In this document: positions 2,365 through 60,751 of the stretch, piece after piece
Position numbering within the stretch: the stretch's first letter is position 1
Layout of the letters: each line of letters opens with the position of its first letter
From: an uncultured Clostridia bacterium
GTDB lineage: Bacteria > Bacillota > Clostridia > Christensenellales > UBA1242
DNA length: 64,000 nt
Direction of reading: 5' to 3'
Assembly (NCBI GenBank): GCA_934757865.1
Contig: CAKVLS010000004.1
Coordinates: 15,981 to 79,980, forward strand
Translations under genes and position numbers: made by a program
Notes under the pieces: generated by a model
What the model was told of the DNA's origin: nothing
What the model saw: the letters and a program-made list of their open reading frames with translations, nothing else
Databases searched by the model: none

Positions 2365-2367
2365 ATG

Positions 2368-2443: not shown

Positions 2444-2451
2444 ATATATAA

Positions 2452-2526: not shown

Positions 2527-2545
2527 TTATATTTTGCGGTAATTT

Positions 2546-2620: not shown

Positions 2621-2629
2621 TTATATTAT

Positions 2630-2707: not shown

Positions 2708-2712
2708 ATAAA

Positions 2713-2789
2713 TGGTGCACCAGAAGGGATTCGAACCCCTGACACCCGCCTTAGAAGGGCGGTGCTCTATCCAGCTGAGCTACTGGTGC
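2713..2789 (-). tRNA. tRNA-Arg (anticodon UCU), encoded CCA
   Basis: Acceptor GCACCAG/CTGGTGC, anticodon stem CCGCC/GGCGG, loop CTTCTAA. Confidence 0.9.
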
Positions 2790-2825
2790 ATACACAACCT
2801 TAGCTACTCTCTAGGGGGTATACAA

Positions 2826-2899
2826 TGGAGCGGGTGATGGGAATCGGACCCACGCGGCCAGCTTGGAAGGCTGGAACTCTACCATTGAGCTACACCCGC
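2826..2899 (-). tRNA. tRNA-Gly (anticodon UCC), encoded CCA
   Basis: Acceptor GCGGGTG/CACCCGC, anticodon stem CCAGC/GCTGG, loop CTTCCAA. Confidence 0.9.
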
Positions 2900-3318: not shown

Positions 3319-4794
3319 TTATAATAATATGCAGATAATTCCGCCTTTGCCTTCGTTAACTATTCTGCCTAGAGTTTTACGCATTTTGTTTTGCGCTTCT
3401 ACTGGCATTTGAACTAGTTTATTATTTAGTCCCTCATTAACTAGGTCGTGAAGAGATTTTCCAAACATATTGGTTTCCCAAATACCTTGTGGATTGCTCT
3501 CAAACTCTTTTAGAAGATATTTAATTAAGTCTGAACTTTGTTGCTCAGTACCAACTATTGAGCTGATTTCCGTCTGGACATCTACTCTCATCACATGCAA
3601 GCTAGGTGCAGAAGCTTTGAGTTTGACCCCGTATCTAGAACCTTGTTTGATTATTTCTGGCTCTTCTAATGTTAGCTCGCTCGTGCTAGGACTTACTACG
3701 CCGTAACCTGTTCTTTCTACTTCGCTAAGAGCATCTTTTAGTTTATCATACTCCACTTTTGCATGAGATAGCTGTTTGATATAGCTAATCAAATGATAGT
3801 CGCTTGTTATCTCATATCCACATTGTTTGCTAAGAACTCTATAGAATAGATTTGGCTTAGGGACAACTTCGGCAATAGCTATACCTTCGCCCATTTTTAG
3901 CTCAGTGATAGTGATAGGCTCGAACATATCACTTGTTTCAAAAGCGATTTTTGTGCTATCAACTTCGCCCACTCTTGTTACATTGTCGACAAGTGATTTT
4001 GTTTCGGCAATGATTTCTTGTATCATTTCGTCATCAAAAGGCACTGCCTCGATCCATTTAGGAAGTTTAACTTTTAGGCTAGTTAGTGGGAAGTCCGCCA
4101 AGATTTTGGCAAACATTTCGTCAATATCTTCTTCTACCATATTAGCAACATCTAGTGCCATAACGCATGCATTGTACTTTTTGGCAAGAGATTTTACAAG
4201 CTCTTTTGTTAGCTCGTCTTTTGGCTTAGTTGTGTTAAGTATAAGCACAAAAGGTTTGTTTGAGGCTTTTAGTTCTTTGACTATTTTTTCTTCTGCCTCA
4301 ATATAGTCGCTACGAGGTATCCCGCTAAAACTACCATCAGTGGTCATAGCAACTGCAATGGTCGAATGCTCTGTTACTACTTTTTTTGTTCCAATTTCCG
4401 CCGCCTCGTCAAAAGGCATTGCTTCTTCTCTCCATGGGGTTTTGACTAGTCTAGGTCTGTTCTCTTCGCCGCTAACGGCAGATTTTATCATATAACCTAC
4501 ACAGTCTATTAGCCTTACATTAAGAGTTGTATTATCTTTTACTTTTATCTTAACAGCTTTGTTTGGGATAAACTTTGGCTGAGTGGTCATAACAGTTTTG
4601 CCATCGGCACTTTGTGGAAGTTCGTCTATTGCCCTATCTTTATCAAATTGATTTTGGATATTAGGAATAACGAGTGTATTTATAAACTTTGTGATAAAAG
4701 TTGATTTTCCACATCTAACAGGGCCAACAACACCTAGATAAATATCGCCATTAGTTCGTACGGCAATATCTTCATAAATATTGTAATTTGTCAT
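3319..4794 (-). CDS. spoIVA: stage IV sporulation protein A (spore coat morphogenetic ATPase)
   Basis: N-terminus MTNYNIYEDIAVRTNGDIYLGVVGPVRCGKSTFITKF matches the characteristic SpoIVA start with its Walker A. Length 491 aa. Confidence 0.95.
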   Translation of the reverse strand: MTNYNIYEDIAVRTNGDIYLGVVGPVRCGKSTFITKFINTLVIPNIQNQFDKDRAIDELPQSADGKTVMTTQPKFIPNKAVKIKVKDNTTLNVRLIDCVGYMIKSAVSGEENRPRLVKTPWREEAMPFDEAAEIGTKKVVTEHSTIAVAMTTDGSFSGIPRSDYIEAEEKIVKELKASNKPFVLILNTTKPKDELTKELVKSLAKKYNACVMALDVANMVEEDIDEMFAKILADFPLTSLKVKLPKWIEAVPFDDEMIQEIIAETKSLVDNVTRVGEVDSTKIAFETSDMFEPITITELKMGEGIAIAEVVPKPNLFYRVLSKQCGYEITSDYHLISYIKQLSHAKVEYDKLKDALSEVERTGYGVVSPSTSELTLEEPEIIKQGSRYGVKLKASAPSLHVMRVDVQTEISSIVGTEQQSSDLIKYLLKEFESNPQGIWETNMFGKSLHDLVNEGLNNKLVQMPVEAQNKMRKTLGRIVNEGKGGIICILL

Positions 4795-6979: not shown

Positions 6980-8875
6980 TTATTTTGTGTTTTTGGGGCA
7001 ATTTTTATATTTACAATTTTTACACCCAGAGCACCCTCTCAAAAATGCAACTGATATGGTAACAAGCATTATTACTATGACTACAATAAGCCAAGCTATG
7101 CTTTTTCTTGCCAAAAGTCCCAGCATATACACAACGCTACATGTAAGGTATGCAATGCCGGTATTTATAAGAAAAGAATAAACAGCATACTTTTTGCCGA
7201 TAGTTTTGCTCATACTACTAAGCGTACTAATGCATGGACTGTATAGGCTAACAAAAAGTATAAAGATAAATAATGTAAGTGGCGAAAAATACGCCTCTAA
7301 CCCACCACTCATACATAGCATTATATCTTTAGCATTTATTCCAGAAGTTAGGGCGAGCGTTGTAAGCACAAGTTCTTTTGCCATGATGCCAACAAAAAGA
7401 GCGCAAACAATCGCCCAATTATTAAGCCCAATGGGAGCAAAGATAGGAGCGAAAATTTTGCATATGTTTTTCAAAATACTATTGTCGCTATCTAGCCTAA
7501 ATGAGAAGTTAAAGTTACGCAAAAACCACACACAAATATTAACCAAAAATATAGTCGTGCCTATCTTGATAAAGAAATTTTTTGCAGTGTCAAGACTTGA
7601 TTTTAGGCACTTTTTTGTAGACGGAACATGATAGTCTGGAAGCTCCAATATAAGACATTTTTTATTACTTTTTATAAAAAATTTATTGCTCAAATATGTA
7701 ACAAAAAGCCCAACAAAAAGCGTCAAACTATATAGCAAAATTACATACAAAAAGCCCAAATTTTTGCTCAAAATTTTTGTAAAAATTACAAAGATAGGTA
7801 GCTTAGCCGAACAGCAAACAAACGGCAAAAGCATAGATAATTTTTTGCGACTAGGCTCGTCCTCTTGGGACGATGTAGTAATCATAGCTGTTGTGTTGCA
7901 CCCAAAAGACACAAGCAAGCTAAATATACTTTTGCCCGACAGCCCAACAAAAGATAGTAGCCCCTCAAACATAAAAGCTATACGAGCAAGATAGCCGCTA
8001 TCTTCTAGAATATTGATGCATATAGACACCAGCAAAATTTGTGGCAAAAAAGATATAATTCCCACAAAAGCCTCTAATATGCCATCAATTACAAGTGAGT
8101 AAACAAACTCTCCAGCGTTTAATTTCCTTATAAGGTTAGTTATAGGATTTTTGATTATCAGGTCAATAAGCCTTGATAAAAGGCTAGAAAGTGTATCTCC
8201 CACATATCCAAAGCATATAAAGAACATAAGCGCCACAATAATAGCAAATATAGGTAGCGAAAATATTGGGCTCAAAAATAGTTTATCAATAGAGAACTTT
8301 TTCTCTTTTTTTATAAGTTTGCACTTAGCAAGTAGCCTCTCGATATACTTATATCTAATAACTACTTTTTGGTCAAACGCAAGGCTATCAAATCTACTGT
8401 CAAAGTAGTCTAATTTACCTTGATGAAAGTCAACATTTATTAGCTTATCATTACTAACATTTTTTGCACTATCAACTATAATATCTACGCCAAGAAGTTC
8501 TTTTAATTTTTTAAAATTAAGCTCAGTTTTTTGCCTTCCAAACTTGTTGATGAATAGAACAATATTATAACCTTTTTCGATAAGTAGTAGAGTCAAATAT
8601 AAGTTGCGTTCTAGGCTTTCTAAACTACAAATATTTATAATCTTTTGGCTTTTTTCAAGAGCCTTCGCGGTGACTTTTTCTTCTATGCTATAACCTGTTA
8701 GATTATAGCACCCCGGAAGGTCAACAAAAATCTCTTTTTTGCCACCAAAAATAATTTCTTTTTTCTTTTCGCTGACGGTTACGCCGTGCCAGTTACCTAC
8801 TCTTTCGTTGCTTTTTGTCAAATGATTAAAAAGAACAGTTTTGCCCACATTAGGATTGCCAACAAGAGAGTACAT
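6980..8875 (-). CDS. feoB: ferrous iron transporter FeoB
   Basis: N-terminal G domain GNPNVGKTVLFN followed by a large polytopic membrane domain. Has a 1-nt overlap with feoA. Confidence 0.9.
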   Translation of the reverse strand: MYSLVGNPNVGKTVLFNHLTKSNERVGNWHGVTVSEKKKEIIFGGKKEIFVDLPGCYNLTGYSIEEKVTAKALEKSQKIINICSLESLERNLYLTLLLIEKGYNIVLFINKFGRQKTELNFKKLKELLGVDIIVDSAKNVSNDKLINVDFHQGKLDYFDSRFDSLAFDQKVVIRYKYIERLLAKCKLIKKEKKFSIDKLFLSPIFSLPIFAIIVALMFFICFGYVGDTLSSLLSRLIDLIIKNPITNLIRKLNAGEFVYSLVIDGILEAFVGIISFLPQILLVSICINILEDSGYLARIAFMFEGLLSFVGLSGKSIFSLLVSFGCNTTAMITTSSQEDEPSRKKLSMLLPFVCCSAKLPIFVIFTKILSKNLGFLYVILLYSLTLFVGLFVTYLSNKFFIKSNKKCLILELPDYHVPSTKKCLKSSLDTAKNFFIKIGTTIFLVNICVWFLRNFNFSFRLDSDNSILKNICKIFAPIFAPIGLNNWAIVCALFVGIMAKELVLTTLALTSGINAKDIMLCMSGGLEAYFSPLTLFIFILFVSLYSPCISTLSSMSKTIGKKYAVYSFLINTGIAYLTCSVVYMLGLLARKSIAWLIVVIVIMLVTISVAFLRGCSGCKNCKYKNCPKNTK

Positions 8876-9090
8876 TATTCCACCTCAATATTTTTTGCAA
8901 GAGCGCCAGAGATTATTATTTCAAATCCCCTTAGCCTTACCAAAAATACACCTTTTCTATACCCTATTGCTTTAATAGTGACAGGCGTGCTAACAAAGCC
9001 CATTTCCATAAGCCTTGCCCTGTCCTCGCACTCTTTGATAGACTTTACTAAATATGTGCTGTTTCTTTTACCTTCATATAGACAAATCAT
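8875..9090 (-). CDS. feoA: FeoA-domain protein
   Basis: 71-aa SH3-like protein immediately upstream of feoB and translationally coupled to it. Confidence 0.8.
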   Translation of the reverse strand: MICLYEGKRNSTYLVKSIKECEDRARLMEMGFVSTPVTIKAIGYRKGVFLVRLRGFEIIISGALAKNIEVE

Positions 9091-9169
9091 AATATATGAT
9101 TATTCATTCGCTTGGCTTTTTATTATTTTTATCAATTACTTTTGCCTTCAAGCAATACAAAAACTATAA

Positions 9170-9196
9170 AAAATGATAGTTATATAATTATAACTA
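9170..9196 (-). terminator. weak AT-rich hairpin after nrdR
   Basis: Stem TAGTTATA (9177-9184) / TATAACTA (9189-9196) with a 4-nt loop, followed by TCATTTTTT on the minus strand. Confidence 0.35.
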
Positions 9197-9221
9197 CCAC
9201 TTAATTGCAATTTTTCATTTC

Positions 9222-9668
9222 TTATTTCATATTTTTCAAAAAGCTAATAAAAGTTTCGACATCCTTAAACTGTCTATATACAGCCGCAAATCTAATATAT
9301 GCTATCTCGTCCATCTTTTTAAGCTCGTCCATAACAAGTTCGCCGATATAACTAGATTTTACCTCTTGGTCAAGAGAGTTTTGAAGTGTTTTCAAAATCT
9401 CATTTACAGCGGTGTCTATCTGCGCCATAGTAACAGGTCTTTTTTCGCAAGCTTTGATAAATCCTCTTTTAATCTTTTGAGGGTCAAGAGGTTGTCTTGA
9501 GTTGTCGTTTTTGATAACCAAAATAGGTATCTCTTCTACTGTCTCGTATGTTGTAAAACGCTTGCCGCATTTTAGACACTCTCTTCTTCTTCTAATGCTA
9601 TTTAACTCATCTGTTGCTCTAGAATCTATTACTTTGCTATCGCCATAACCACAATATATACACTTCAT
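9222..9668 (-). CDS. nrdR: transcriptional repressor NrdR
   Basis: N-terminal zinc ribbon (MKCIYCG ... CLKCG) followed by an ATP-cone. 148 aa. Confidence 0.95.
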   Translation of the reverse strand: MKCIYCGYGDSKVIDSRATDELNSIRRRRECLKCGKRFTTYETVEEIPILVIKNDNSRQPLDPQKIKRGFIKACEKRPVTMAQIDTAVNEILKTLQNSLDQEVKSSYIGELVMDELKKMDEIAYIRFAAVYRQFKDVETFISFLKNMK

Positions 9669-9727
9669 TTGTTTTTTCCTCTATATGTAGTATATCAGTT
9701 ATTTTTTAACTAGTAAATTGATTTAGA

Positions 9728-10117
9728 TTATTTTTCGAGGTCTTCGTCTATTATTTTGCTTTTTAAGCTACTTGTATTCATATCTATAGGCTCAATAGGA
9801 GAGTTTTCTATAGAGGTGTTTTCCTTTTGCTTCGCTTCCAGCGTACAGACATTATCCTTGCATTTTTTGACTGGTGGAAGATTAAAAAGTTCAACAAGTA
9901 TTACATCATCGCCAATCTTACAAATATTCCTATACGGTATAAAAATATCTTGCCCAGACTTAAAAAAGCTAAAAAAAGATTTAGCCCCCGGAACTACTAG
10001 CCCCGTTACTCTACTCGTCCTTATATCCACTACCATATCTACTATATGCCCCAAGAGTCTGCCATCAACTATATTGATAACTTCTTTACACCTAAGGTCA
10101 AGAAAAGATGTCTCCAT
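9728..10117 (-). CDS. YlmC/YmxH-family sporulation protein (PRC-barrel)
   Basis: The DLRCKEVINIVDGRLLGHIVDMVVD segment is typical of the family. Sits directly downstream of sigG, as in other spore formers. Confidence 0.8.
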   Translation of the reverse strand: METSFLDLRCKEVINIVDGRLLGHIVDMVVDIRTSRVTGLVVPGAKSFFSFFKSGQDIFIPYRNICKIGDDVILVELFNLPPVKKCKDNVCTLEAKQKENTSIENSPIEPIDMNTSSLKSKIIDEDLEK

Positions 10118-10160: not shown

Positions 10161-10925
10161 TTACAAAGATTTTTTTAGCATTTCAAGAGCGTTCTTTTCT
10201 AGCCTTGAAACTTGCGCTTGACTTATACCTACAGACTCGGATATTTCTGTTTGAGTTTTGCCAAGAAAATATCTAAGTCTCAAAATCTCTTTTTCCCTCG
10301 TGCCTAGCTTTTCCATAGCTTCTTTTAGAGCGACATTTTCAAGCAGTTCTTCACAAGTATTTTTGTTATCACTAAGCTGTTCCATCACAAGCACTGTATC
10401 TATGCCGTCATTATATACCGGCTCATATAGGCTGACAGGGTCGGCTATTGCGTCTAGCGCAGACAAAACATCAATCACCGGAAGGTCAAGGTCTTTTGCT
10501 ATATCGTCAATAGATATGTCTTTGCCCATCTTAGAATATTTTTGGCGAGTAAGCAAAACTTTGTACGCAATATCTCTCAAACTTCTGCTAACCCTCACAC
10601 AAGTGCCCTCTCTAAGATAACGCCTTATCTCGCCTATAATCATAGGCACAGCATAAGTCGAAAACTTAACATTAAAACCCTCGTCAAAATTATCCATAGC
10701 TTTCATTAGTCCAACGCAGCCGACTTGAAAAATATCATCAATATTGTTACTGCTTGTACTAAATCTACTAACAATACTAAGTACAAGTCTCATATTGCCA
10801 CTAATAAAAAGGTCCCTTGCCTCTAAATCTCCACCTTTTAGCCTTGTCATAAGGCTTGCCATTTCTTTGCCCGAAAAATTAGGAAGGTCTGCAGTATTAA
10901 CGCCACAAATAACTACTCGTTTCAT
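10161..10925 (-). CDS. sigG: sporulation sigma factor sigma-G
   Basis: Very close to B. subtilis SigG as I recall it (ICGVNT, FQVGCVGLMKAMDNFD, FSTYAVPMIIGEIRRYLR, ISQAQVSRLEK). I moved the start from the track's GTG at 10937 to the ATG at 10925, because the candidate promoter would leave the GTG without a leader. Confidence 0.9.
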   Translation of the reverse strand: MKRVVICGVNTADLPNFSGKEMASLMTRLKGGDLEARDLFISGNMRLVLSIVSRFSTSSNNIDDIFQVGCVGLMKAMDNFDEGFNVKFSTYAVPMIIGEIRRYLREGTCVRVSRSLRDIAYKVLLTRQKYSKMGKDISIDDIAKDLDLPVIDVLSALDAIADPVSLYEPVYNDGIDTVLVMEQLSDNKNTCEELLENVALKEAMEKLGTREKEILRLRYFLGKTQTEISESVGISQAQVSRLEKNALEMLKKSL

Positions 10926-10945
10926 AAAATTACTCACTTTGTAGT

Positions 10946-10975
10946 TATTTTCCCCAATATACCAAAAAAATATGC
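10946..10975 (-). promoter_or_regulatory. candidate sigma-F/sigma-G type promoter of sigG
   Basis: Minus strand reads GCATA, 15 nt, GGGGAAAATA, against the sigma-F consensus GCATR-15-GGnRAYAMTW recalled from B. subtilis. Confidence 0.45.
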
Positions 10976-11051
10976 AAAAAAATCCCTAATTTACTAGGTA
11001 TGCTTAATCAAACATCTATCAAAAAACATAATTTATATATAAAATTATAAT

Positions 11052-11774
11052 TTATATTACTTTCCCTAAGTCCTTTTTGAGTTTGGCAAGAATTTTCTTC
11101 TCTATGCGTGATATGTAACTTTGGGATATGCCCATGCAGTCTGCAACTTCTTTTTGCGTAAGCTCGTCTTTTCCATTTAGTCCAAAACGCAAAGTCATAA
11201 TAGTCTGCTCTCTAAGGTGTAACTTACTTATAGCATCTTTTAATATTTGCTTTTCGGCACTAAGCTCAATATTTTTGCCAGTGCTCTCTCCCTCTGCAAC
11301 TAATATGTCCGCTAGCAATAGTTCGTTGCCGTCTTTATCAAAGTTTAGTGGCTCGTCAAGACTAACTTCTAGTTTTTGTTTGGTTACCTTTCTAAGATGC
11401 ATCAAAATTTCATTTTCAATACATCTTGAAGCGTAAGTCGCAAGCTTGATATTTTTTTCAAAGTTAAAAGTAGAAACTGCCTTGATAAGTCCAATAGAAC
11501 CTATTGACACTAGATCCTCAAGTTCCACACCAGTATTCTCAAACTTTTTGGCAATATAAATGACTAGTCTCAAATTTCTTTCGATAAGTGTAGACCTAGC
11601 ATTTTGGTCACCGGTAGACGCAAGTGCTATACACTCCCGCTCCTCACTCTCCGTTAGCGGCTCGGGCAAAACTTCTGTCCCGCAGATATACGCAACAAGC
11701 TTTTTTCTTGCACTTAATATATCTTTACTAAATAGCCTTCTAAAAAACATTTTAATTTTGCTAAAAATATTCAT
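11052..11774 (-). CDS. sigE: pro-sigma-E sporulation sigma factor
   Basis: N-terminal pro-sequence followed by YICGTEVLPEPLTESEE and sigma-70 regions 2 and 4. RBS GGAGGG. spoIIGA-sigE-sigG synteny. Confidence 0.9.
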   Translation of the reverse strand: MNIFSKIKMFFRRLFSKDILSARKKLVAYICGTEVLPEPLTESEERECIALASTGDQNARSTLIERNLRLVIYIAKKFENTGVELEDLVSIGSIGLIKAVSTFNFEKNIKLATYASRCIENEILMHLRKVTKQKLEVSLDEPLNFDKDGNELLLADILVAEGESTGKNIELSAEKQILKDAISKLHLREQTIMTLRFGLNGKDELTQKEVADCMGISQSYISRIEKKILAKLKKDLGKVI

Positions 11775-11972: not shown

Positions 11973-12743
11973 TTAGTTAACCAGCATAACATTAAGTAGT
12001 GCCGAATACTCTCCAAAGTTGGCCCCAACTGATAGCCCCAAGAGACATTTTTTAGGACTTCCATCAACTAAGACCTCGTTTGGCTCAAATACTAACATTT
12101 TACTTTTTGTGCCGACAGAATTGTACTCCAAAAAGTGCGAGTTCTTAAGGCAAAAGTTTTTGCTGGCAAGATCAAAAAAGTTCACACCGGTAAGGTGCAA
12201 AAAAGTCTTATAATCAATTATCACTACCGGCAGTCCGCTAGTATCCTCTAAGGTATTGCCGCTATCTAGGTACGCCTTGCATCTATATGTATTGCTGTTA
12301 TAAGTTATAGTCACTTGATACTCAAATTTCTTTTGGCGTTTTATGTTATAAAAATGCTTTGACAAACAAAGCACAACAAGCGTGCTAAAAATAAGCGTCA
12401 AAACTCTCATCAAAAGTGCCCTATCCCCAAAGTTATCGGTTGCAACTTTTTTTGTGCCTAGGATAAAAATTATAAAGCAGAGATTGGTCAAAACCTTTGC
12501 TAAATATTTATTGCTACTTGTAACGAGTACGCCCAATATAACTACCAAAATTGTCAGCAATATTTCGCCAAAAAACGCAAGATTAAGTATAGGAATAGCC
12601 GCATATAGTATGCCGCCCAAGACGCCTAAAACTAGAGCTCTTATAAGAGCCTTATCACACAAAATTTTTGATGAAAGAAAGCTTGCCACAAAGAAAATCA
12701 CAAAGCCTTCTATTAGTAACGCTTCATATACTACCATATCCAA
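11973..12743 (-). CDS. spoIIGA: sigma-E processing peptidase SpoIIGA
   Basis: Five N-terminal TM helices, then the aspartic-protease motif YLDSGN. Located immediately upstream of sigE. Confidence 0.85.
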   Translation of the reverse strand: MDMVVYEALLIEGFVIFFVASFLSSKILCDKALIRALVLGVLGGILYAAIPILNLAFFGEILLTILVVILGVLVTSSNKYLAKVLTNLCFIIFILGTKKVATDNFGDRALLMRVLTLIFSTLVVLCLSKHFYNIKRQKKFEYQVTITYNSNTYRCKAYLDSGNTLEDTSGLPVVIIDYKTFLHLTGVNFFDLASKNFCLKNSHFLEYNSVGTKSKMLVFEPNEVLVDGSPKKCLLGLSVGANFGEYSALLNVMLVN

Positions 12744-41015: not shown

Positions 41016-41741
41016 ATGAAACCAGAAATAAAAGATAAAAAACAAGAAATCAAAAAACCAACTTTATTAACAAAAATTAAAAAACTCTTTATCCCAAAAG
41101 AAAAAGAGCCTGAGCAAATTACCGCTATAAAAATTGTAAAAGAGATGTCAAAAAATAACCCTTACCCTGTAGGTAAAAGCATAGACAAAATATCAAAATA
41201 TATTACAAATGAAAAAGAATTACCCGTAGCCCAAAGACTTGAACTTTTGCTTGATGCCTACGGCAAGTATTATAAATACCAACATCAATCTACAGTTTCA
41301 TATGCAGTAGATGAAGAAGCTGCGGATTTTTCTAGAATTGAAGATGAGTACTATCGTATGGGCAAAAAAATATCTTTTAACGACTACTTCAATGCGCGTA
41401 TGAAAGAACAAGAATATATCGTAAATAGAGAGCTTAGAAATAATGCTCAAAAACTTCTTACAAATGCAGAAAATAATGGCAATAAAGAAGAAGTGATGAA
41501 CAATTTGGATTCATATGGAGCATTAATAATTAATAACTCGCTTAAACTACAAGATGACTTTTGGACAAATAGAGATAAGAGTGGATACAAATTTTCTAAT
41601 GATGAAAAATTTATAAAAGATGCACTTATATATAGATATGAGCAAAAGTTAGAAGCTAAAAAATCAAAAACAACTCAATGCCCTTCTCAACAAAAAAGCG
41701 AAGACAAAAAACAATCTTCAGATTCAGCCCAAGGTATGTAA
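41016..41741 (+). CDS. hypothetical Lys-rich helical protein, paralog 1
   Basis: RBS GGTGAGG. Shares YPxGxSxDxIS...LLxDAYGKYYKYQH, YIVNR and RYxxKLE blocks with the next gene. Confidence 0.7.
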   Translation: MKPEIKDKKQEIKKPTLLTKIKKLFIPKEKEPEQITAIKIVKEMSKNNPYPVGKSIDKISKYITNEKELPVAQRLELLLDAYGKYYKYQHQSTVSYAVDEEAADFSRIEDEYYRMGKKISFNDYFNARMKEQEYIVNRELRNNAQKLLTNAENNGNKEEVMNNLDSYGALIINNSLKLQDDFWTNRDKSGYKFSNDEKFIKDALIYRYEQKLEAKKSKTTQCPSQQKSEDKKQSSDSAQGM

Positions 41742-41828: not shown

Positions 41829-42530
41829 ATGAATCCAATATTAAAAAACGGCAATAAAAAAGTAAAAAAATCAAATTTCTTCAATAATATTAGGACTTTC
41901 TTTTTCCCGACCCCAGAGATGCTTGTTGATAAGATGAGCACATCAACTAGCTATCCTTACGGCAGATCACTAGATGCGATATCTAACAAAATCGTAAGCT
42001 CAAAAACACTTGCTCCAGAGCAAAAAATTGACCTTTTGTTTGACGCCTACGGTAAGTATTATAAGTACCAACACGAAAGAGTTGTTAATTTTGCGACTTT
42101 TGAGTTCTATTATGAAGACTTTATGATAGAGTTTGCGGGCGAGCTTTTTAAGCATCAATATAGATATGACAAACGCTTTAGAGAGTTATCTGCTGAGACA
42201 AAGTACATCGTTAACAGAAACTTTGACGAAGATATGAAAGATGTATTTGCAGAGGCTAAACAAAAAAATATTATGCACTCTGTTATTGAAAAATTAGATG
42301 ACTATCAAATTAAAGCCATCAATGCAGCTATGAAACTTAAAGACAACTACAAAGAGGGTCTTGTAGATAATGAATATCAAGCTGATGATAACGAGAAGTA
42401 TCTAGAAAAATTACTTGTTGCAAGATATGACAAAAAATTAGAGCAACAAAAAGCTTCTACCAAACCTTTCCCAGAGTTTGAGGAGCAAGTAATCACAGAG
42501 ACTCATTCACAAGGTAGCCAAGTATTGTAA
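41829..42530 (+). CDS. hypothetical helical protein, paralog 2
   Basis: RBS AAGGGGGGGG. Has conserved blocks in common with 41016-41741. Confidence 0.7.
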   Translation: MNPILKNGNKKVKKSNFFNNIRTFFFPTPEMLVDKMSTSTSYPYGRSLDAISNKIVSSKTLAPEQKIDLLFDAYGKYYKYQHERVVNFATFEFYYEDFMIEFAGELFKHQYRYDKRFRELSAETKYIVNRNFDEDMKDVFAEAKQKNIMHSVIEKLDDYQIKAINAAMKLKDNYKEGLVDNEYQADDNEKYLEKLLVARYDKKLEQQKASTKPFPEFEEQVITETHSQGSQVL

Positions 42531-43369: not shown

Positions 43370-44020
43370 TTATATTCTTTGATTTTGGATAGCTGTTGGG
43401 TATATTGGTAGTTCCAAAACTCCCGAGCAAGCATCTTGAGTGTATTCTTGACAAACAGGTGCATTACAATAACCATAACTTGGCACCAAAATCTCTGCTC
43501 TTACAATGACTTTGATAATAATAGTGATGCAGGCAGTGATTGAGAAAGTGTTACCGCTAACATAAGTTCCTCTAGGTACACTTGTCGCCCCAAAAGCTTC
43601 TATTGTATATGGTACGATAGATGGCTGTGGTACAAAAAGTATTACATCTACAGGGACTGTTATGGTAGTAGCTCCTGTGCCTGTTACTCCGTTATTATCC
43701 GTATATGTAACGATCAAAGGTATATTTACATTTCCTGAAACTCTAGCAAAATTTGGCTTATCTGCAAGCCTTTCGACAACAAGGTCAGTAAGGGTAGTAC
43801 CTTGGGCAGTTTGAGCGCTGACAAAAGTAAGTGGAAGCGTAGGATTAGCTGGGTTAAGTCCAGTTAAAGTTTGCTCCAAATTTACTTCTTGTACTTGTTT
43901 CATACATGCGTCCAAAACCTTGTCTGTTTGGATACAAGCCTTTTCGCATAGTCCGTGAAGTGGATTGCCTACAATTACACCTGGTGTATTTCCTGTTCTA
44001 TTACAAGTATAAAAAGACAT
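43370..44020 (-). CDS. hypothetical Cys-containing beta-rich protein, possible spore surface protein
   Basis: RBS AAGGAGG. Cys-bearing N-terminus (HGLCEKACIQTDKVLDACMKQ) followed by long alternating beta-type stretches. A sigma-K-like promoter lies upstream. I recognise no family. Confidence 0.5.
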   Translation of the reverse strand: MSFYTCNRTGNTPGVIVGNPLHGLCEKACIQTDKVLDACMKQVQEVNLEQTLTGLNPANPTLPLTFVSAQTAQGTTLTDLVVERLADKPNFARVSGNVNIPLIVTYTDNNGVTGTGATTITVPVDVILFVPQPSIVPYTIEAFGATSVPRGTYVSGNTFSITACITIIIKVIVRAEILVPSYGYCNAPVCQEYTQDACSGVLELPIYPTAIQNQRI

Positions 44021-54627: not shown

Positions 54628-54660
54628 TAAAAACAAACTGCCAAACAAAAATTTGGCAGT
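54628..54660 (-). terminator. terminator after the LOG-like gene
   Basis: Stem ACTGCCAAA (54637-54645) / TTTGGCAGT (54652-54660), followed by TTTGTTTTT on the minus strand. Confidence 0.7.
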
Positions 54661-54662
54661 AG

Positions 54663-54697
54663 AATTTGATTTAATTAAATTTAATTTGATTTAATTA
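54663..54697. repeat. 15-bp direct repeat (two copies)
   Basis: AATTTGATTTAATTA occurs at 54663-54677 and 54683-54697. The second copy covers the LOG-like stop codon. Confidence 0.8.
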
Positions 54698-55336
54698 TTT
54701 ATTGCCACTATTGTAGCTTGCTTTGTCCTTTTCTCTAAGATATGCAGGAATAAATCTATTAACGGCTGGGCGTCTTCTGTAGCTGTGGATTAGTTCCAAA
54801 GCATCATCAACATTATCAACGACATTAACAAGGTCATTAAACTCGCCCGGAGTGCACAAGCCCTCTTCTTCTTGGACTTTGTAAAATTCAAGAAGTTTGT
54901 CATAATAGCCGTCAATGTTAACTAAAACTATCTCGTAAGCATGAGGATATTGTCTGTTGATTTCTAAGAAAGTAACAAACTCATGTACTGTGCCGTTAGC
55001 ACCCGGAAGAACTACAATTATATCTGTATTGTCGGCAAAAGTCTTAAGTCTTGTATTAAGACATTGATTAGGAAGTCTTTCGCCTACCATACCGTCTCTA
55101 TAACTATCAAAGTACACAACGCTAAGGTCTACAAGTTTAACCTTTTTGTTGTACTTAATAAACTCGTTGTAAGTAACGCCCATTAGCCCGTACTCGCTAC
55201 AACCTTGCAAATATACATATTGCTTTTTGCCTAAGTATTCGCCTATTTTTCTAGCGGCTTCTATTGTCTTTGGGTTTTTTGGCAATCTGCAACCCTCCGC
55301 AACAAAAACTCTAACATCATCATCATCTTTTAACAT
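54695..55336 (-). CDS. divergent LOG-family (TIGR00730/SLOG-type) nucleotide-binding/phosphoribohydrolase-like protein
   Basis: RBS AGGAGG. Has PGANGTVHE where the family has PGGxGTxxE, and QGCSEYGLMG where it has GGGxxGLMG. Confidence 0.6.
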   Translation of the reverse strand: MLKDDDDVRVFVAEGCRLPKNPKTIEAARKIGEYLGKKQYVYLQGCSEYGLMGVTYNEFIKYNKKVKLVDLSVVYFDSYRDGMVGERLPNQCLNTRLKTFADNTDIIVVLPGANGTVHEFVTFLEINRQYPHAYEIVLVNIDGYYDKLLEFYKVQEEEGLCTPGEFNDLVNVVDNVDDALELIHSYRRRPAVNRFIPAYLREKDKASYNSGNK

Positions 55337-55346
55337 TTTTGTCCTC

Positions 55347-56621
55347 CTACTTTAAGTAAAGTGATTTACATAATTTTCTTACGCCATCGACATCGTTTGC
55401 CTTAGACATTGTAAGAATATTTTTTATGTCTTCGTTAGGTATCTCTTCTTCTATCTCGCCGATGTATTCTTTGACAAGGTCGCACCATGCTTGTGCGGTC
55501 TTTTGGCTATAAAATAGCTTAATCATAATATGTGCGTCAAAGAAGTAGTTTTTGAAGAAGAATATCCATTTATCATTTGGTATATCTGCCAAAATCTCTT
55601 TTGCAACATTACGAGCTTCGTCTAGGTATCCATAAGGGTTGCCGATATATGCTAGTATTGTTGGGCAAATATAATTTCTTGTAAACATAGCGGGTATGTG
55701 TAAGTTGTCTTTTATATTAAGTAGCGCACTTATCTCGCTACGAGTGTTGTTAAGACTAAAATGGCTAGCTATAGCGTCTTGACCATTGATAAAGATATGT
55801 CTTATAAGGTTAACATCGGTATTGAAGTCTGGTATCTTAATGTGATTGCTTACCTCGTTCAAAACCTCTTCTGCAAGCTCAGTGTTGTTGTTTTGTTTAA
55901 TGTATAGTGACAAGAAAATCTTATCGGACATAGATAGATTTTCCCAAAGAGCTGGTATTAGAAGTTTGAAATTGTTTATAAAGACTTCATCTTTTTTCTT
56001 AACCTCAAACAAAAGCACAAATAGTAGTCTTGTAACTATTGTCTTTTCGTCATTAGTAGCTTCTAGTATTGTTATGTACTCGCTAGTTAGTGGCATAAGT
56101 TTATCACTAGTTAACATATCAACTAGTGACTTATAACTCTCGCTAAATGCTGAATAGTCCTTGTAAAAAATATAGTTAAAGCATAGCTTACCATAATTTT
56201 CTACTTGCTCTTTTGTTATCTGCCCTACATTTAGTTTACGATTTTGTGCTTGCAAAAGTTCTGCAAGTTTGATGATATTCATTCTGTCTTCTCTATCAAT
56301 GATGCCAAACTTATTAGCCAAACTTAGTGCAAATACATCGCTAATACCTAGTATTGAACCTTGGTCCATAACATACGCCATTTTGTTAGCGATAGTTTCG
56401 CCGGCACTATAAAGAACTTTTCTTAGTAGTGCCATAGATTTTTTGTATATATACTCTAAGCAATATCTATAAAAGCCCGCTTCATAAGAAGATTTGATAT
56501 AATCTTTTTCTTCGTCTTTTATATTAACAGGACAATTAGTTACTATGTCTTCAAAGTTTTGGTCACTATTAAAGTCCGCAACCGCAAGTCCCTCATAGTT
56601 AAATACTGAATTTTCTGTCAT
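55347..56621 (-). CDS. hypothetical 424-aa protein that looks all-helical
   Basis: Long ORF whose ATG shares 1 nt with the upstream stop (TAATG). I recognise no motif. Confidence 0.6.
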   Translation of the reverse strand: MTENSVFNYEGLAVADFNSDQNFEDIVTNCPVNIKDEEKDYIKSSYEAGFYRYCLEYIYKKSMALLRKVLYSAGETIANKMAYVMDQGSILGISDVFALSLANKFGIIDREDRMNIIKLAELLQAQNRKLNVGQITKEQVENYGKLCFNYIFYKDYSAFSESYKSLVDMLTSDKLMPLTSEYITILEATNDEKTIVTRLLFVLLFEVKKKDEVFINNFKLLIPALWENLSMSDKIFLSLYIKQNNNTELAEEVLNEVSNHIKIPDFNTDVNLIRHIFINGQDAIASHFSLNNTRSEISALLNIKDNLHIPAMFTRNYICPTILAYIGNPYGYLDEARNVAKEILADIPNDKWIFFFKNYFFDAHIMIKLFYSQKTAQAWCDLVKEYIGEIEEEIPNEDIKNILTMSKANDVDGVRKLCKSLYLK

Positions 56622-57652
56622 TATTTAACTACCTCTTCATAGAAAGTTTCGCCGTCTTGTGACTGGAAGTATACGCCGATTACTTTCTTTACCTTAGAGT
56701 TAACTATGGTGTATGCTGCTCTCTTACGAGCTCCGCCTACGACATTGGTTAATTTATTGTTGCTGGTAATAAATACATTGTATGCTCTTATTCTGCCGGC
56801 GTTATCTACTATGGTAATACCATCATAGTTAAGCATTGCTATAAATAGTTCCGCAACGCTCATAAGTTTGGCCTCGGAGTAGCCATTGGTCTGCATAAAT
56901 AACTTAGAAAACTCAATAGGAGTTTCTAGCCATATACCATCGCCAAAGTAGCCTTTGTCAACATAATCTTTGTCTACGATTACACATATAGCACCGTGTA
57001 TATCGTTAAATGCTTGTTTGAAAATATTAGCATACAATATTTTGATTTCGTTTAGTTTTTTCTTTGTAGTTTTTAGTTTAGAAAGGCTTGCGTTAACAAA
57101 ACGGTTAACGACACCTTCTCTATTGACATAGCTTAGGTCGTTAAGTGAAAAGTTAATAACTGCCTCACTGCCCTTGATGCCTCTTAGAAGTATAGCAAAG
57201 GAACTCATAACATCTAGTGTTAAAAGTGAGATTTTTGACTCTTTGAGAGTGTCGCTCAAATACATCAAATCAACAAATTTTTTCTCTTTGATACTGTTAA
57301 AAGTCTTAACAATACCATAAGTAAATTTGTCATCTTTTATCTCGACAAAGACTGTCCAGTCAATGTCGCAAAATCCCATAAGGGCTTTCATACGAGAGTT
57401 AAATTGTGACTCGTTGTTATCAAAGAATAGTGGCAATTTATAACTAGTTGGAACATTTTTTACGATGGTGTCAATGTTGCTAGTGATAAGTATGCTTGGT
57501 CTTATCTTGCGGCCTTCTTCTTCGTAATTACAAAACTTATATAAGAAGTTCATTATATAAGTAACAAACTTTTCGGGCATGGTAGGAAACTCTTTGCACA
57601 CTAGTTTGATTACCGATTCTTTTGCGTCTGTATAAAATATGTTTTCAACCAT
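56621..57652 (-). CDS. DisA_N/diadenylate-cyclase-like domain protein (divergent)
   Basis: The C-terminal 140 aa line up by eye with DAC blocks: HGAICVIVD (GALIVI), YDGITIVDNAGRIRAYNV (HDGAVI...I.AA), GGARKRAA (GTRHRAA) and VYFQSQDGE (VVSEETG). The N-terminal half shows a weaker echo of the same pattern. Confidence 0.45.
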   Translation of the reverse strand: MVENIFYTDAKESVIKLVCKEFPTMPEKFVTYIMNFLYKFCNYEEEGRKIRPSILITSNIDTIVKNVPTSYKLPLFFDNNESQFNSRMKALMGFCDIDWTVFVEIKDDKFTYGIVKTFNSIKEKKFVDLMYLSDTLKESKISLLTLDVMSSFAILLRGIKGSEAVINFSLNDLSYVNREGVVNRFVNASLSKLKTTKKKLNEIKILYANIFKQAFNDIHGAICVIVDKDYVDKGYFGDGIWLETPIEFSKLFMQTNGYSEAKLMSVAELFIAMLNYDGITIVDNAGRIRAYNVFITSNNKLTNVVGGARKRAAYTIVNSKVKKVIGVYFQSQDGETFYEEVVK

Positions 57653-57686: not shown

Positions 57687-59054
57687 TTAATTTTCTTTTT
57701 TGCTTTGTTTTTCTTTTTCTTTAATTTGCTTTTTTCTTTTGTTATATTTTCTAATTATTTGATTTTTTTCTTCCATTGTACGTTTTTTGCGTGGAACATT
57801 TTTTAGAGCCTCTTTACGCTCTTTCTTGTCTTGTTTGATTTTTGCCTTGTGCTCTTGTTTTTTCTTATACTCATCGATTAGGTATAAGTATCTATTGTAA
57901 GCATCATCAACTTTTTGGTCCCAAGTCCTGTATAGTTCCTTAAAAGCGTTCTCGCTAACTTCTTTATATTTTTCCTCATCGCCAAGAACTTCTATTATCT
58001 TCTCCGCAAAGCCCTCAGTAGATGGCTTAGAGATATAACCATTGTGGTCGTTAACAACTCCGGCTGTCGCGGCTATACCTTCCATAAGTACGGTAGGTGT
58101 ATGTTGTGACGCACCCTCATACTTAACAAGTCCGTCAGTATCATATACCGATGGGAATAACATTAACTTGCTTGCAGCATAGTATTCAGCTAGTAGTTTC
58201 CTGTCTTTGATAGACCCTGTAAAGATTACTTTGTCATCAAGACCAAGTTCGGTGACATGTTTTTTTAGATCGGCAAGGTCCATACCATCGCCGACATATA
58301 TCATTCTAAAGTCAATGCCTCTATCCTTAATAATCTTCAAGCTGTCAGCTATCATAAAGATGCTCTTCATTACAATCATTCTGCCGACAAACAAGAATAC
58401 TGGGACATTGTCTGGGATATTGTGCTTTTCGTAAATCTTCTTTCTAGCAGCTTCTTTGTCGATAGGTAACATCTCTGTGCCTGACTTCATAACATAAGAA
58501 GGTTTTTTGTACCCATAGGATTTCAAAACATCTTGGGTGTTTTCGTTAACAGCCCACACTTCTGTGCAGTTATTAAAAACTTTCATAACATCTTTTAGAA
58601 GAATATTAGAGATAAACTCAGACTTAGTAGCTCTCTTAAAGTCTTGCTTAAACTGGCTGTGCATTGTAGCTACAACGGGTATCTTTTTCTCTTTTGCGAT
58701 AGCTACGCCCATCTTGCCAATATTAAAAGGTGAGTGAATATGTATGATATCAATCTTACGCTTTTTCATATTGTTTATAAACTTTGAGTCAATTTGTGGC
58801 ATAGCATAGTCATAACCTAGAATAGGAACTTTTGTCGCAAGGCATCTTACTACCTCATAGTCAAAAGCATCTTTGTAACCCTTTCTTCTAGGTGCTACGA
58901 CAAAGACATTTGCCTTATCTTTCAAAATTCTTGCGTAGTGATTAACAACTGTTACTACGCCGTCTATAGATGGATAAAACGCATCACAAAATAATGCTAT
59001 GTTTATCTTTCCGTCATCATTTTGCTCGGCGTTTAATTTTGCGTTCTTTGGCAT
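57687..59054 (-). CDS. GT4-family glycosyltransferase, glycolipid-synthase-like, with a Lys-rich C-terminal tail
   Basis: RBS AGGAGA. N-terminus ALFCDAFYPSIDGVVTVV resembles diacylglycerol glucosyltransferases. EX7E-type region (YEGASQHTPTVLMEG). The last roughly 70 aa are a K/E/R-rich tail. Confidence 0.7.
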   Translation of the reverse strand: MPKNAKLNAEQNDDGKINIALFCDAFYPSIDGVVTVVNHYARILKDKANVFVVAPRRKGYKDAFDYEVVRCLATKVPILGYDYAMPQIDSKFINNMKKRKIDIIHIHSPFNIGKMGVAIAKEKKIPVVATMHSQFKQDFKRATKSEFISNILLKDVMKVFNNCTEVWAVNENTQDVLKSYGYKKPSYVMKSGTEMLPIDKEAARKKIYEKHNIPDNVPVFLFVGRMIVMKSIFMIADSLKIIKDRGIDFRMIYVGDGMDLADLKKHVTELGLDDKVIFTGSIKDRKLLAEYYAASKLMLFPSVYDTDGLVKYEGASQHTPTVLMEGIAATAGVVNDHNGYISKPSTEGFAEKIIEVLGDEEKYKEVSENAFKELYRTWDQKVDDAYNRYLYLIDEYKKKQEHKAKIKQDKKERKEALKNVPRKKRTMEEKNQIIRKYNKRKKQIKEKEKQSKKEN

Positions 59055-59065
59055 AAATTTTTCTC

Positions 59066-59614
59066 CTATTTTTCAAACAATAATGCAATATCATTTTGTC
59101 CCTCAAAGTGGTATAAGCTGTCATAACTTACTGTACCCACTTTTGAGGTTTTGATTAATTTGTAACCCTGTGACAATCCATAGTTGATAATATCAAAACT
59201 CTTGATATTTGGGTTATTAAGATTTTCTATCACTAGCAAATACTTAGTGTATAGCGAAAAGATACCTCTCTTTAACTCCTCTACACTTTTACCACGCTCT
59301 ACACCTCTACTGATAGCAAGATGCGCAACTACTAGATCATATTGTCTATTTATCTTTTGTTTTGTAATGTCGGCTTTTACTATTTCCCAATTTCTTGCTT
59401 TGACTGCCTTTTTCATTTGTGCAACGCCTAGCATTGTAGGAGTCTCCATTATTGCATCAATTACAGCGTTTGGATAAGTCTCAGTAAGATTATATAAACT
59501 AGTTCTGCCGCTACCTATATCTGCTATAAACTCTATTTTTTCTGGTTTAAGCAAAGTAAACATTTCGTTAAAAAGTTTGCTATGCTCAGGTCTTGGAGTG
59601 TATTTTCTAAACAT
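59066..59614 (-). CDS. class I SAM-dependent methyltransferase (small)
   Basis: Motif I-like IADIGSGRT. 182 aa. Confidence 0.55.
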   Translation of the reverse strand: MFRKYTPRPEHSKLFNEMFTLLKPEKIEFIADIGSGRTSLYNLTETYPNAVIDAIMETPTMLGVAQMKKAVKARNWEIVKADITKQKINRQYDLVVAHLAISRGVERGKSVEELKRGIFSLYTKYLLVIENLNNPNIKSFDIINYGLSQGYKLIKTSKVGTVSYDSLYHFEGQNDIALLFEK

Positions 59615-59628
59615 ATTTGCTTTCCTTT

Positions 59629-60435
59629 TTACTTACTTTTTTTGACCGGCTTAAAACCGCCAAAGTATCTATAAATAAATCCATAAATCCAACGCTTAGG
59701 GAATATCTTAGTCAAAAAGTATAAGAATTTGTACTTAGCACCAACGATAAACATAGGCTTAGGATGTTTTTTGTTAGATATCTTATAAACTCTCTTACCA
59801 ACAACTTCTGGACTCATACGCTTGTCTTCTCTAGAGTCTATTGCCTCAGCTGCGTTTTTGATACGAGCGCCGTAATGCTCATTTGTTACATTTACCTTAA
59901 CTCTATTGCGAGTAAAGTTGGTCTTAACATCTCCTGGGCACACTGCTATAACATCTATGCCAAGAGGTTTAACCTCCATAGCAACCGAAAAACTCAAGTT
60001 GTTAACAGCAGACTTACTTGCACAATATAGCGCTCTAAAAGGTAGTGGAAATAGCGCACATGCTGAGCTCATATTGATTATCTTGCTGCCCTTTTTCATA
60101 TAAGGGATAGCGTGCTTGATACAATTAAGCACGCCGAAGTAGTTAACATCAATAATGCCTTCTGACTCTTGCTCGTCAATTAGTTCCACTGCACCCGAAA
60201 CACCATAACCTGCATTGTTAATCAAGATATCAAAGTCGCCGAACTTATCGTGGATTTTTTCTAGCACATCATGAACCATAGCATCTATTGATACATCGCA
60301 CATAAAAAAGTTTTGAGAGTGATTGTTATTTTTTCTTGACATAACAACTACTGTGTCACCGTTTTTTGTAAACTCCTTAGCACACGCCTCACCAATACCG
60401 CTAGTACCACCTGTTATTACTACTACTCTATTCAT
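59629..60435 (-). CDS. short-chain dehydrogenase/reductase
   Basis: TGGTSGIG and YCASK motifs. Start moved to the ATG at 60435, 5 nt after GGAGG; the track's start is a TTG inside the RBS. Confidence 0.85.
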   Translation of the reverse strand: MNRVVVITGGTSGIGEACAKEFTKNGDTVVVMSRKNNNHSQNFFMCDVSIDAMVHDVLEKIHDKFGDFDILINNAGYGVSGAVELIDEQESEGIIDVNYFGVLNCIKHAIPYMKKGSKIINMSSACALFPLPFRALYCASKSAVNNLSFSVAMEVKPLGIDVIAVCPGDVKTNFTRNRVKVNVTNEHYGARIKNAAEAIDSREDKRMSPEVVGKRVYKISNKKHPKPMFIVGAKYKFLYFLTKIFPKRWIYGFIYRYFGGFKPVKKSK

Positions 60436-60751
60436 AATTGCCTCCAAAAATGTAGAATTTTGCGATTTTTTGCCAAATACAATTTTACATTTTTAGTTTA
60501 TAATAATTGCCGTTTTTTTGCAAATAATTTAGTATATATATTTATTTAATTTATGTACATTTTTTGTTAAACTTCTCAAAAGTAAATAAAAGTATCACAA
60601 ATTTTCAAAATAAGATTAGTTCTCATAAACCCCTGCCAAAAACTGGAAAATATTTTTTTGCATTTTTTGTATAACTAAAAAGCTCCTTCACATACTAACA
60701 CCAGCAAGGGACAAATAATTTGCCACTTGTGATTATAAAAGGAGGGAAAAT

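Follow-up and report, generated by a model that had tools for sequence, protein, structure and literature searches.

A stretch of 64,000 nucleotides from an uncultured Clostridia bacterium (contig CAKVLS010000004.1, positions 15,981 to 79,980 of the forward strand; "the window" denotes this whole stretch) contains three closely packed genes on the minus strand, which raise the question of whether they form an undescribed nucleotide-signaling system, and which of the three belong to it. Gene A (56621..57652) is an open reading frame (ORF) for a two-domain protein of 343 amino acids (aa), gene B (55347..56621) encodes a soluble all-alpha protein of 424 aa, and gene C (54695..55336) a divergent 213-aa protein of the LOG family (PF03641/TIGR00730-like). 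A first-pass annotation of the window had described A as a diadenylate cyclase (DAC)-like protein and had likened the trio to nucleotide-centric conflict modules predicted by comparative genomics. As detailed below, conservation extends to the pair of A and B, which is ancient and tight, and not to the trio, and LOG is a recent, lineage-specific third gene in the A-B operon. With a confidence somewhat better than even, we read A-B as an undescribed ancient two-gene module that carries LOG as a recent passenger, A being presumably a cyclase and B its dedicated partner.

The A-B pair and the LOG gene

In the window, the stop codon of A and the start codon of B share one base within the sequence TAATG (56619..56623, minus strand), an arrangement of translational coupling, and the ATG of the LOG gene starts 10 nt past the stop of B, preceded by an AGGAGG Shine-Dalgarno sequence (55343..55348, minus strand) that overlaps the TAG stop codon of B. 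All of these details, from the coordinates of the three reading frames to the GGARKRAA codons of gene A, the AGGAGG site and the shared TAATG, agree exactly with the first description. To what extent this arrangement is conserved was assessed in a GTDB sample of 80 loci, 72 of which could be judged, having A intact and sufficient DNA downstream of it. B lies directly downstream of A in 30 of the 72, at offsets of -1, -4, -32 or 0 nt, and all Clostridia-clade loci with B (n = 33) either have it overlapping A or leave no more than 7 nt between the two genes. Next to remote A proteins, which are only ~20–25% identical to window A, the overlapping downstream gene is a full-length B homologue (hhalign against B: probability 98.8–100%, E 1e-16 to 6e-85). 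For a scan of JGI metagenomes the broad 69-sequence alignment was too divergent, and a 13-sequence alignment of one remote A subfamily was used; it returned 49 environmental loci, of which 36 have at least 1.3 kb downstream of A, and B overlaps A or lies within 7 nt of it in 35 of these 36. B is also found at the remote loci L089, L091, L094 and L146, on two plasmids and on three viral contigs. The tight coupling of the 343-aa protein to a helical 424-aa partner, as proposed from the window, is therefore borne out by an overlap that recurs in related and distant loci.

The trio, whose conservation as a unit the first-pass annotation had put forward for checking, does not recur in this way. Among the GTDB loci, the third gene after A-B is LOG in five (L005–L009), a gene of the PRK/uridine-kinase family in 21 and another gene in four; L007 lies too near a contig end for the length filter of the 72-locus count, and its LOG gene was found in the 80-locus survey. 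The linkage is limited to L005–L009, in each of which A is at least 70% identical to window A, so that LOG accompanies A-B in only five other species-level loci. The close relatives of gene C form 14 clusters, all within the narrow clade that carries the trio, and with its linkage thus confined, LOG drops out as a component of the module; absence of linkage in related genomes is an outcome that the first-pass annotation had itself named as refuting. In a sister clade (L010–L036, at ~8320–10070), A-B is followed in 21 species by a 305-aa P-loop protein of the PRK/uridine-kinase family (Pfam PRK, 7e-12), often with a 268-aa HD-domain gene or sepF next in line. Here, the slot equal to that of LOG is held by a different nucleotide-metabolism gene.

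Gene C itself matches PF03641 at 4e-15 (56.5 bits, with a cut-off of 27) and Arabidopsis LOG structures in the PDB (1ydh at 1e-9), which upholds its assignment as a divergent LOG-family member; with TIGR00730 of NCBIfam it reaches 59.8 bits, under the cut-off of 96.35 bits. It shares the Rossmann-like LOG fold family with the LOG and TIGR00730 "lysine decarboxylase-like" phosphoribohydrolases, and keeps G-T-x-x-E, L-M-G and the residues R96/E119, which align with the LOG catalytic Arg/Glu pair; all of these are invariant in its close relatives. However, the canonical PGGxGTxxE reads PGANGTVHE in gene C (PGANGT[VL]HE in relatives), and GGGxxGLMG reads QGCSEYGLMG (QGC[SN]ExGLMG in relatives), with PGANGT and QGC.E.GLMG invariant in the 14 close relatives. 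A terminator-like hairpin with a 10-bp stem and a T-run (54637..54660, minus strand) lies 35 nt 3' of the LOG stop codon and is likely to mark the end of the transcription unit, although the call comes from a consensus scan alone and terminator-like sites in the region total no more than the shuffled expectation. A promoter scan likewise gave no more matches than expected from shuffled sequence.

Domain structure and conservation of A and B

Gene A divides into an N-terminal domain (approximately residues 1–215, nt 57008–57652) and a C-terminal domain of the DAC (DisA_N) fold (approximately residues 216–343, nt 56624–57007). An AlphaFold2 model of A built on 28 homologues (pLDDT 80.5) was compared with the PDB by Foldseek, a check that had been suggested together with the original DAC-fold call. 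All 42 matches at E <= 0.011 are DisA, CdaA/DacA or CdaM/DacM chains, with E-values of 8e-5 to 1e-2 and a probability of ~1, and the next E-values lie above 0.1; the target-normalised TM-score is ~0.45–0.52 on the 150-aa CdaA domains. Judging by this model, the C-terminal half of A has the DAC alpha/beta fold, and the call is upheld in that every significant PDB match is a DAC protein. Searches by sequence were less telling: NCBIfam and PADLOC gave no match to window A, and a PDB search gave none with the single A sequence or with a 28-sequence profile, while a 122-sequence profile had DisA and CdaS as its top, weak matches. Among the 122 A members, DAC is the sole recurrent Pfam family (26 of the 122 at E < 0.1, best E 1e-5).

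The alignment of these 122 members extends to pairwise identities of 18%, its remote members being 18–25% identical to window A. E46, G220, D277, G278, G307 and R309 are invariant across it, with R311, S331, D333 and G334 reaching a conservation of 90% or more. According to a 2026 survey, the four residues D, G, G and R are fully conserved over all curated DACs; D277, G278, G307 and R309 of A correspond exactly to these, which means that the catalytic core is conserved. By alignment, HGA of A further corresponds to (H/I)GA of canonical DACs, D277-G278-I to DGA, F294 to the adenine-stacking Tyr187 of CdaA, G307-A-R309-K-R311-A-A to G-T-R-H-R-A-A, and S331-Q-D333 to S-E-E. The GGARKRAA codons (56714..56737, minus strand) represent the family motif G-G-A-R-x-R-A, the equivalent of the canonical G-T-R-H-R-A-A, and ARKRAA is aligned to TRHRAA of both B. 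subtilis CdaA and CdaS (2fb5). The blocks HGAICVIVD, DGITIVDNAGRIRAY and SQDGE, from which the first-pass annotation had recognized the domain, are present and highly conserved. Its description of the RHR His as "metal-binding" finds no backing in the literature examined, which gives RHR as an ATP/ligand-binding motif and not as a metal ligand; changing RHR to AAA abolishes ATP binding, and no separate role of the His was found there.

Residues 1 to ~215 of A form a second alpha/beta domain with the signature Y43-x-E45-E46, K89, W99 and G113. Pfam at E <= 10 found nothing recurrent in nine diverse N-terminal domains, the DACN* sensor domains included; an earlier indication of DACNV (E 0.24 in two of 28 members) was noise and was dropped. 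The predicted order of secondary-structure elements in this half, beta-alpha-beta-alpha-beta-beta-alpha-beta-beta, mirrors that of the DAC half. The "fainter repeat" that had been noticed in the N-terminal half thus has a counterpart in the order of these elements, but not in sequence profiles, since hhalign detects no similarity between the two halves, and an internal duplication is unsupported at that level; the internal pseudo-dimer that the first-pass annotation had suggested is a conjecture on which these comparisons speak neither way.

The family of A is large and unnamed. At least 953 close homologues, all of ~345 aa, are unnamed or annotated as "hypothetical", and a hidden Markov model scan of 1.84 billion representative proteins returned 577 A clusters at 50% identity (E <= 1e-3), nearly all of 340–355 aa and matched over their full length. 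Relatives of A occur in at least 194 GTDB species, and the best 80 of these 194 are all uncultured Clostridia, Christensenellales or related metagenome-assembled genomes (MAGs), mostly from the gut. In some lineages, A adjoins pheST or directly follows yabP-yabQ-divIC. At the two loci L001 and L002 (7360-8388, plus strand), where B is missing, the next same-strand gene after A encodes a DHH/DHHA1 phosphoesterase (NrnA/Pde2-like; Pfam 6e-17 and 2e-13), an enzyme type that includes cyclic di-AMP (c-di-AMP) and pApA hydrolases; this is a single observation. Six other loci without B (L041, L049, L050, L052, L053 and L058) have a 103-aa ORF without Pfam match, "c25", coupled to A by a gap of 1–2 nt or an overlap (~7046–7360 in 13-kb loci), which may be an alternative small partner of A.

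For B, an AlphaFold model (pLDDT 85.9, pTM 0.85) predicts a wholly helical protein. No transmembrane segment is predicted, the maximal 19-residue Kyte-Doolittle hydropathy being 1.55. Neither Foldseek against the PDB, nor Pfam with 37 diverse members, nor a PDB profile search provided a meaningful match, and the best Foldseek candidates, designed armadillo repeats at E 0.07, were rejected as relatives. B is thus a new all-alpha family without known relative. Conserved residues include N217, W226, Y239, H287-x3-N-N-x3-E296, P310, G327-N-x-Y-G331, W352 and D362, a pattern which suggests a defined binding or catalytic site. B diverges at roughly twice the rate of A; for instance, pairs with 88, 73, 62 and 53% identity in A have 64, 43, 34 and 19% in B.

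Core and mobile settings of the pair

The window represents the core chromosome of a low-GC, spore-forming Clostridia MAG, with the dcw cluster, ftsA/Z, sigE/sigG-like genes, a spoIVA-like gene, tig-clpP-clpX and groES. One strand carries almost all of the genes, the A-B-C locus shows no anomaly in composition and has an unremarkable GC content, and the region is found again in human gut metagenomes. Synteny is stable among the core genes (groESL-SPOR-SDR ... sepF-lspA). Upstream of A, and outside the module, are genes identified by Pfam for a short-chain dehydrogenase/reductase (SDR, 59629-60447), a methyltransferase-like 182-aa ORF (59066-59614) and a GT4 glycosyltransferase (57687-59054). 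These three minus-strand genes (57687..60447) are co-directional with A, with gaps of 11–34 nt, stand in the same order in L005–L009, and are probably co-transcribed with A-B; the narrow gaps make A and B late genes of a probable longer operon that ends with gene C. No model of PADLOC-DB v2.0.0 matches window A, B or C, and no CD-NTase (cGAS/DncV-like nucleotidyltransferase) is encoded within the 64 kb. Rfam finds seven tRNAs and no c-di-AMP riboswitch over the window, and a regular-expression search for a canonical DGA...GxRHR ORF finds none in the window and 84 loci, which are small parts of each genome. The question, raised in the first-pass annotation, of a variable (defense-island-like) or a core context is accordingly answered for this copy by a core array in which no PADLOC model is matched.

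Several features of the window stand apart from the module. The seven tRNA genes are tightly arrayed at 2285-2899 (minus strand; Rfam tRNA, 55–69 bits). Sporulation-type genes, namely a spoIVA-like ATPase and two sigma-factor-like ORFs that follow a spoIIGA-like membrane protein (3319-4794, 10161-11774 and 11973-12743, minus strand), point to a host that forms endospores or once did. Two adjacent ORFs of ~235 aa with similar N-termini (41016-41741 and 41829-42530) lie on the plus strand amid almost wholly minus-strand genes, and the AT skew flips sign there. About 12 kb from A, a Cys-rich 216-aa protein without Pfam match (43370-44020, minus strand) is 55% identical to "c26" of L041, L043, L049, L052, L053 and L058; in these six other Clostridia lineages, c26 is on the strand opposite to A and comes one or two genes after it.

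Beyond the gut Clostridia clade, A-B behaves like a mobile accessory module and is found on plasmids, in prophages and in defense islands. At L094, it stands between a type I restriction fragment and a class II prokaryotic Argonaute (pAgo) with an Argonaute-associated gene. A HigB-like toxin and a peptidase with a helix-turn-helix (HTH)-M78 architecture precede A-B at L089, where a 2005-aa DUF4011 helicase follows; at L146, an HsdM-like methyltransferase and an HD_4 gene lie upstream, and DUF488 and two integrases downstream. A mobilizable plasmid of Vibrio sp. dhg carries A-B between a small HTH regulator and a BsuBI/PstI restriction-modification system with IS3. On the Agrobacterium plasmid pAtCG920, A-B is divergent from a patatin gene and a CdnE-type CD-NTase (6e0k, E 4e-50), which constitute a type I cyclic oligonucleotide-based anti-phage signaling system (CBASS). 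Two Firmicute-like prophages from IMG/VR (L149, L150) have A-B between the replication module and ArpU-like and terminase genes, and a third IMG/VR locus (L151) has a HaeIII-like C5-methyltransferase near A-B. The flanks of the JGI loci have essentially no gene families in common, except for pAgo after B in three related loci. In a census of 144 flanking proteins, PADLOC identified pAgo, PbeA, DpdF, PDC-M30/M41, PD-Lambda-2_B and a type I restriction endonuclease, and Pfam identified ResIII, DEAD, Piwi, phage integrase, Schlafen/AlbA_2 and DUF5131, plus ordinary metabolic genes. On three remote A-B pairs themselves, PADLOC was blank for five of the six proteins and marginal for one A (E 0.006). 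GenBank phages contain no match to window A or a remote A, and the remote A subfamily was not found in IMG/VR. The conflict-module context that had been proposed therefore applies to distant A-B pairs, which are found beside pAgo, CBASS, restriction-modification systems, prophage genes and on plasmids, but not to the window copy, which is core.

Two further observations concern these neighborhoods. At L094 (6208-9359), L095 and L096, pAgo (PADLOC pAgo_II, E 2e-239) and the Argonaute-associated protein begin 35 nt past the stop codon of B. In two unrelated remote contexts, a gene with HTH and HExxH motifs (ImmA/IrrE-type, Peptidase_M78-like) is located directly upstream of A-B (L089, 6373-7470; L149, 6592-7776; L150, 6587-7771).

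Relation to known systems and possible roles

Until 2025–2026, DAC enzymes were thought to be limited to c-di-AMP homeostasis; since then, two defense-associated DAC classes have been reported, both via the Pfam DAC signature. CdaG/DS-2C is a protein of ~550–575 aa with the domains DACNG, DACNH and DAC, encoded inside CBASS operons; DACNH is reported to be distantly DAC-related and degenerate and to lack the catalytic residues. Panoptoo/PanDA combines the minimal DAC PanS (~150 aa) with the 2TM-beta effector PanE (bioRxiv 10.64898/2026.08.10.743927, 10.64898/2026.08.10.743972). Defense-island DACs that are only ~25% identical to DisA are active cyclases in vitro. A-B matches no DAC class compared, including PanS-PanE and CdaG/DS-2C of 2026; the 22 families into which Galperin (2023) is cited as dividing DACs by regulatory domain lie outside this comparison. 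Within the literature examined, and again apart from these 22 families, the earlier impression of a combination that is not a described system is thus sustained for A-B, and a search by the accessions of the plasmid-borne A-B proteins yielded no paper.

With canonical DACs (DisA, CdaA/DacA, CdaS, CdaM, CdaZ), A shares the predicted fold, D-G, G-x-R-x-R-A, S-x-[DE] and an aromatic residue at the adenine-stacking position, and like DisA, CdaS and CdaZ it is soluble with an appended regulatory domain. It differs from them in its score below the Pfam threshold, DG[IV], a variable RHR His, a Pfam-blank 215-aa N-terminal domain, a partner that is the overlapping all-alpha B instead of CdaR or GlmM, and its accessory or mobile nature outside one Clostridia clade. 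Panoptoo/PanDA resembles A-B as a two-gene operon with a divergent DAC that keeps the universal DAC residues, and is often found beside CBASS in defense islands, as A-B is in Agrobacterium. However, PanS consists of the DAC domain only, whereas A (~345 aa; family ~340–355) has a large N-terminal domain, and PanE is a membrane-associated beta-barrel receptor (S2TM-beta, Cap15-like), whereas B is a soluble all-alpha protein of ~430 aa; no sequence relationship between PanE and B was detected. Like CdaG, A is a multi-domain protein with an uncharacterised N-terminal part that can adjoin CBASS, and the degenerate DAC-like fold of DACNH parallels the DAC-like order of secondary-structure elements predicted for the N-terminal half of A. 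Yet A is ~200 aa shorter, DACNG and DACNH match none of nine A N-terminal domains (E <= 10), and where CdaG forms one protein encoded inside a CBASS operon, A has a separate B gene and usually no adjacent CD-NTase, the only relative with a CD-NTase beside A-B being the one on pAtCG920 (CdnE and patatin).

We infer that A is an active nucleotide cyclase, B its regulator or the receptor or effector of its product, and the pair a conflict system by origin or, in many lineages, to this day. The N-terminal domain of ~215 aa would presumably be sensory or regulatory, and the DAC half would bind ATP or another nucleoside triphosphate via D-G, G-x-R-x-R and the conserved aromatic residue; a head-to-head dimer of A would then make c-di-AMP or a related cyclic dinucleotide. 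B, which is translated in strict coupling with A, could regulate A or act as a receptor or effector of its product. Outside the gut Clostridia, A-B would be a candidate for a further, third kind of conflict or defense system built on a DAC. In the host clade, it is inherited vertically in an array of core genes, with many relatives keeping A without an adjacent B, and given this combination its role there may have become physiological. For window A-B, a domesticated or physiological role is at least as likely as active phage defense. LOG would be co-transcribed with A-B, having been added only in the closest relatives, and might at most contribute local nucleotide processing. A bolder version of the same idea, which we entertain tentatively and hold to be less probable than not, is that A-B is a third DAC-based system of conflict with phages or mobile elements, distinct in mechanism and overlooked by screens that rely on Pfam. 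The N-terminal domain of A might then sense infection or pair asymmetrically with the DAC half, A might make a cyclic or linear, possibly non-canonical dinucleotide, and B might represent a new class of soluble all-alpha receptors or effectors; in gut Christensenellales-like Clostridia, the system might have been domesticated, recruiting the LOG or uridine-kinase-like enzyme to shape or clear the signal.

A number of observations weigh against an active cyclase module of conflict-system origin. The Pfam DAC model (PF02457) scores window A at 16.7 bits (E 0.0056, residues 266–325), below the gathering threshold of 27, and the sequence similarity of A to DAC stays under every curated threshold. 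Across the A family, the third residue of DGA is Ile or Val instead of the canonical Ala, and the position flanked by the two arginines can hold K, R, S, T, H, M and others. Given DG[IV] and the non-conserved His, catalysis or product of A could differ or be lost. As this middle position is free family-wide, RKR is not diagnostic for window A, and the idea that the change from RHR to RKR signals unusual chemistry does not survive, both arginines being conserved. No effector, transmembrane or nucleotide-binding domain can be recognised in B, and 42 of the 72 related species have no adjacent B. The window module belongs to a stable core-chromosome array and to no variable island, with PADLOC blank and GC ordinary. 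Elsewhere, the A-B subfamily of L091–L093 sits in a polysaccharide-biosynthesis locus (epimerases, EpsG, pyruvyl transferase, GT4), and one remote A is found by itself in the midst of glycine-cleavage genes. Finally, the defense association comes from a modest, non-random sample of loci with no statistical background; the enzymatic activity and defense role of A-B are putative, read from sequence and gene neighborhood. As an aside on L091–L093, a 510-aa protein follows A-B there, and window A-B likewise comes after GT4, methyltransferase-like and SDR genes.

The sub-threshold Pfam similarity, the replacement of DGA by DG[IV] and the loss of the RHR His could also mean that the DAC-like domain of A is an inactive pseudo-enzyme that would act as a receptor for a nucleotide or cyclic dinucleotide, or as a scaffold with control over B. 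CdaG provides a precedent in DACNH, DAC-related without catalytic residues, and the DAC-like order of elements in the N-terminal half of A would fit as well. However, the four universal residues, the second Arg and Ser-x-Asp are under strong purifying selection among members that are 18–25% identical, which is unusual for a dead enzyme, and defense DACs only ~25% identical to DisA are active in vitro; we regard an inactive A as doubtful. With its catalytic residues conserved, A could, on the other hand, be the housekeeping c-di-AMP synthase of the clade, a new DAC class by its regulatory domain, with B as a regulator in the manner of CdaR or GlmM and no role in conflict. The spread of A across uncultured Clostridia/Christensenellales (at least 194 GTDB species), the stable core synteny from groESL-SPOR-SDR to sepF-lspA, the position beside yabP-yabQ-divIC or pheST in some lineages and the DHH/DHHA1 phosphoesterase next to A in L001 all agree with such a function. 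It is difficult to reconcile with A-B on plasmids, prophages and defense islands of unrelated bacteria, where the flanks are wholly variable. Moreover, a gut-microbiome census of DACs by PF02457 reports a canonical DAC (CdaA or DisA) in 93% of gut Bacillota_A species; from this figure, the window host probably has CdaA too, and a second, atypical DAC would be unneeded if, as we infer, the figure extends to these genomes. The window contains neither a c-di-AMP riboswitch nor cdaA, for which its size is uninformative. Altogether, a housekeeping synthase seems unlikely to us.

What remains is the original three-component view, in which A, B and LOG form a nucleotide-centric conflict system and A makes a signal for LOG to sense or cleave. 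The tight packing of the trio (1-nt overlap, 10-nt gap, terminator-like hairpin after LOG) speaks for it, as do the atypical LOG, with PGANGT for PGGxGT and a score below the TIGR00730 cut-off, and the sister clade, which puts another nucleotide-metabolism enzyme of the PRK/uridine-kinase type in the slot of LOG. Yet LOG follows A-B in just five other species-level loci, where A is at least 70% identical, its close relatives (14 clusters) stay within the same narrow clade, LOG/SLOG is not among the most frequent families flanking remote A-B, and none was seen beside plasmid or prophage copies, all of which makes a three-component system very improbable.

Read as an ancient A-B module with a presumed cyclase and its partner, the finding is larger than was first claimed for the window: it concerns a widespread, unannotated two-gene family of a DAC-fold and an all-alpha protein. 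The family of A falls below the Pfam DAC signature, and yet comprises hundreds of 50%-identity clusters and keeps the catalytic residues that are universal in DACs. Except in one Clostridia clade, A nearly always comes with the same partner protein, whose fold family is unknown. If A is active, A-B would add a new pairing of synthase and partner to nucleotide immune signaling, together with a new signal-binding or effector fold. The gut-microbiome census assigned its validated DACs only to CdaA, DisA, DacZ and CdaS and probably missed the A family, which is abundant in gut MAGs. The window thus offers a natural case of an A-B module that has reached fixation in the core genome, in uncultured Clostridia that are abundant in the human and animal gut, and this core fixation of A bears on estimates of c-di-AMP production by the microbiota, which at present count Pfam-positive DACs only.

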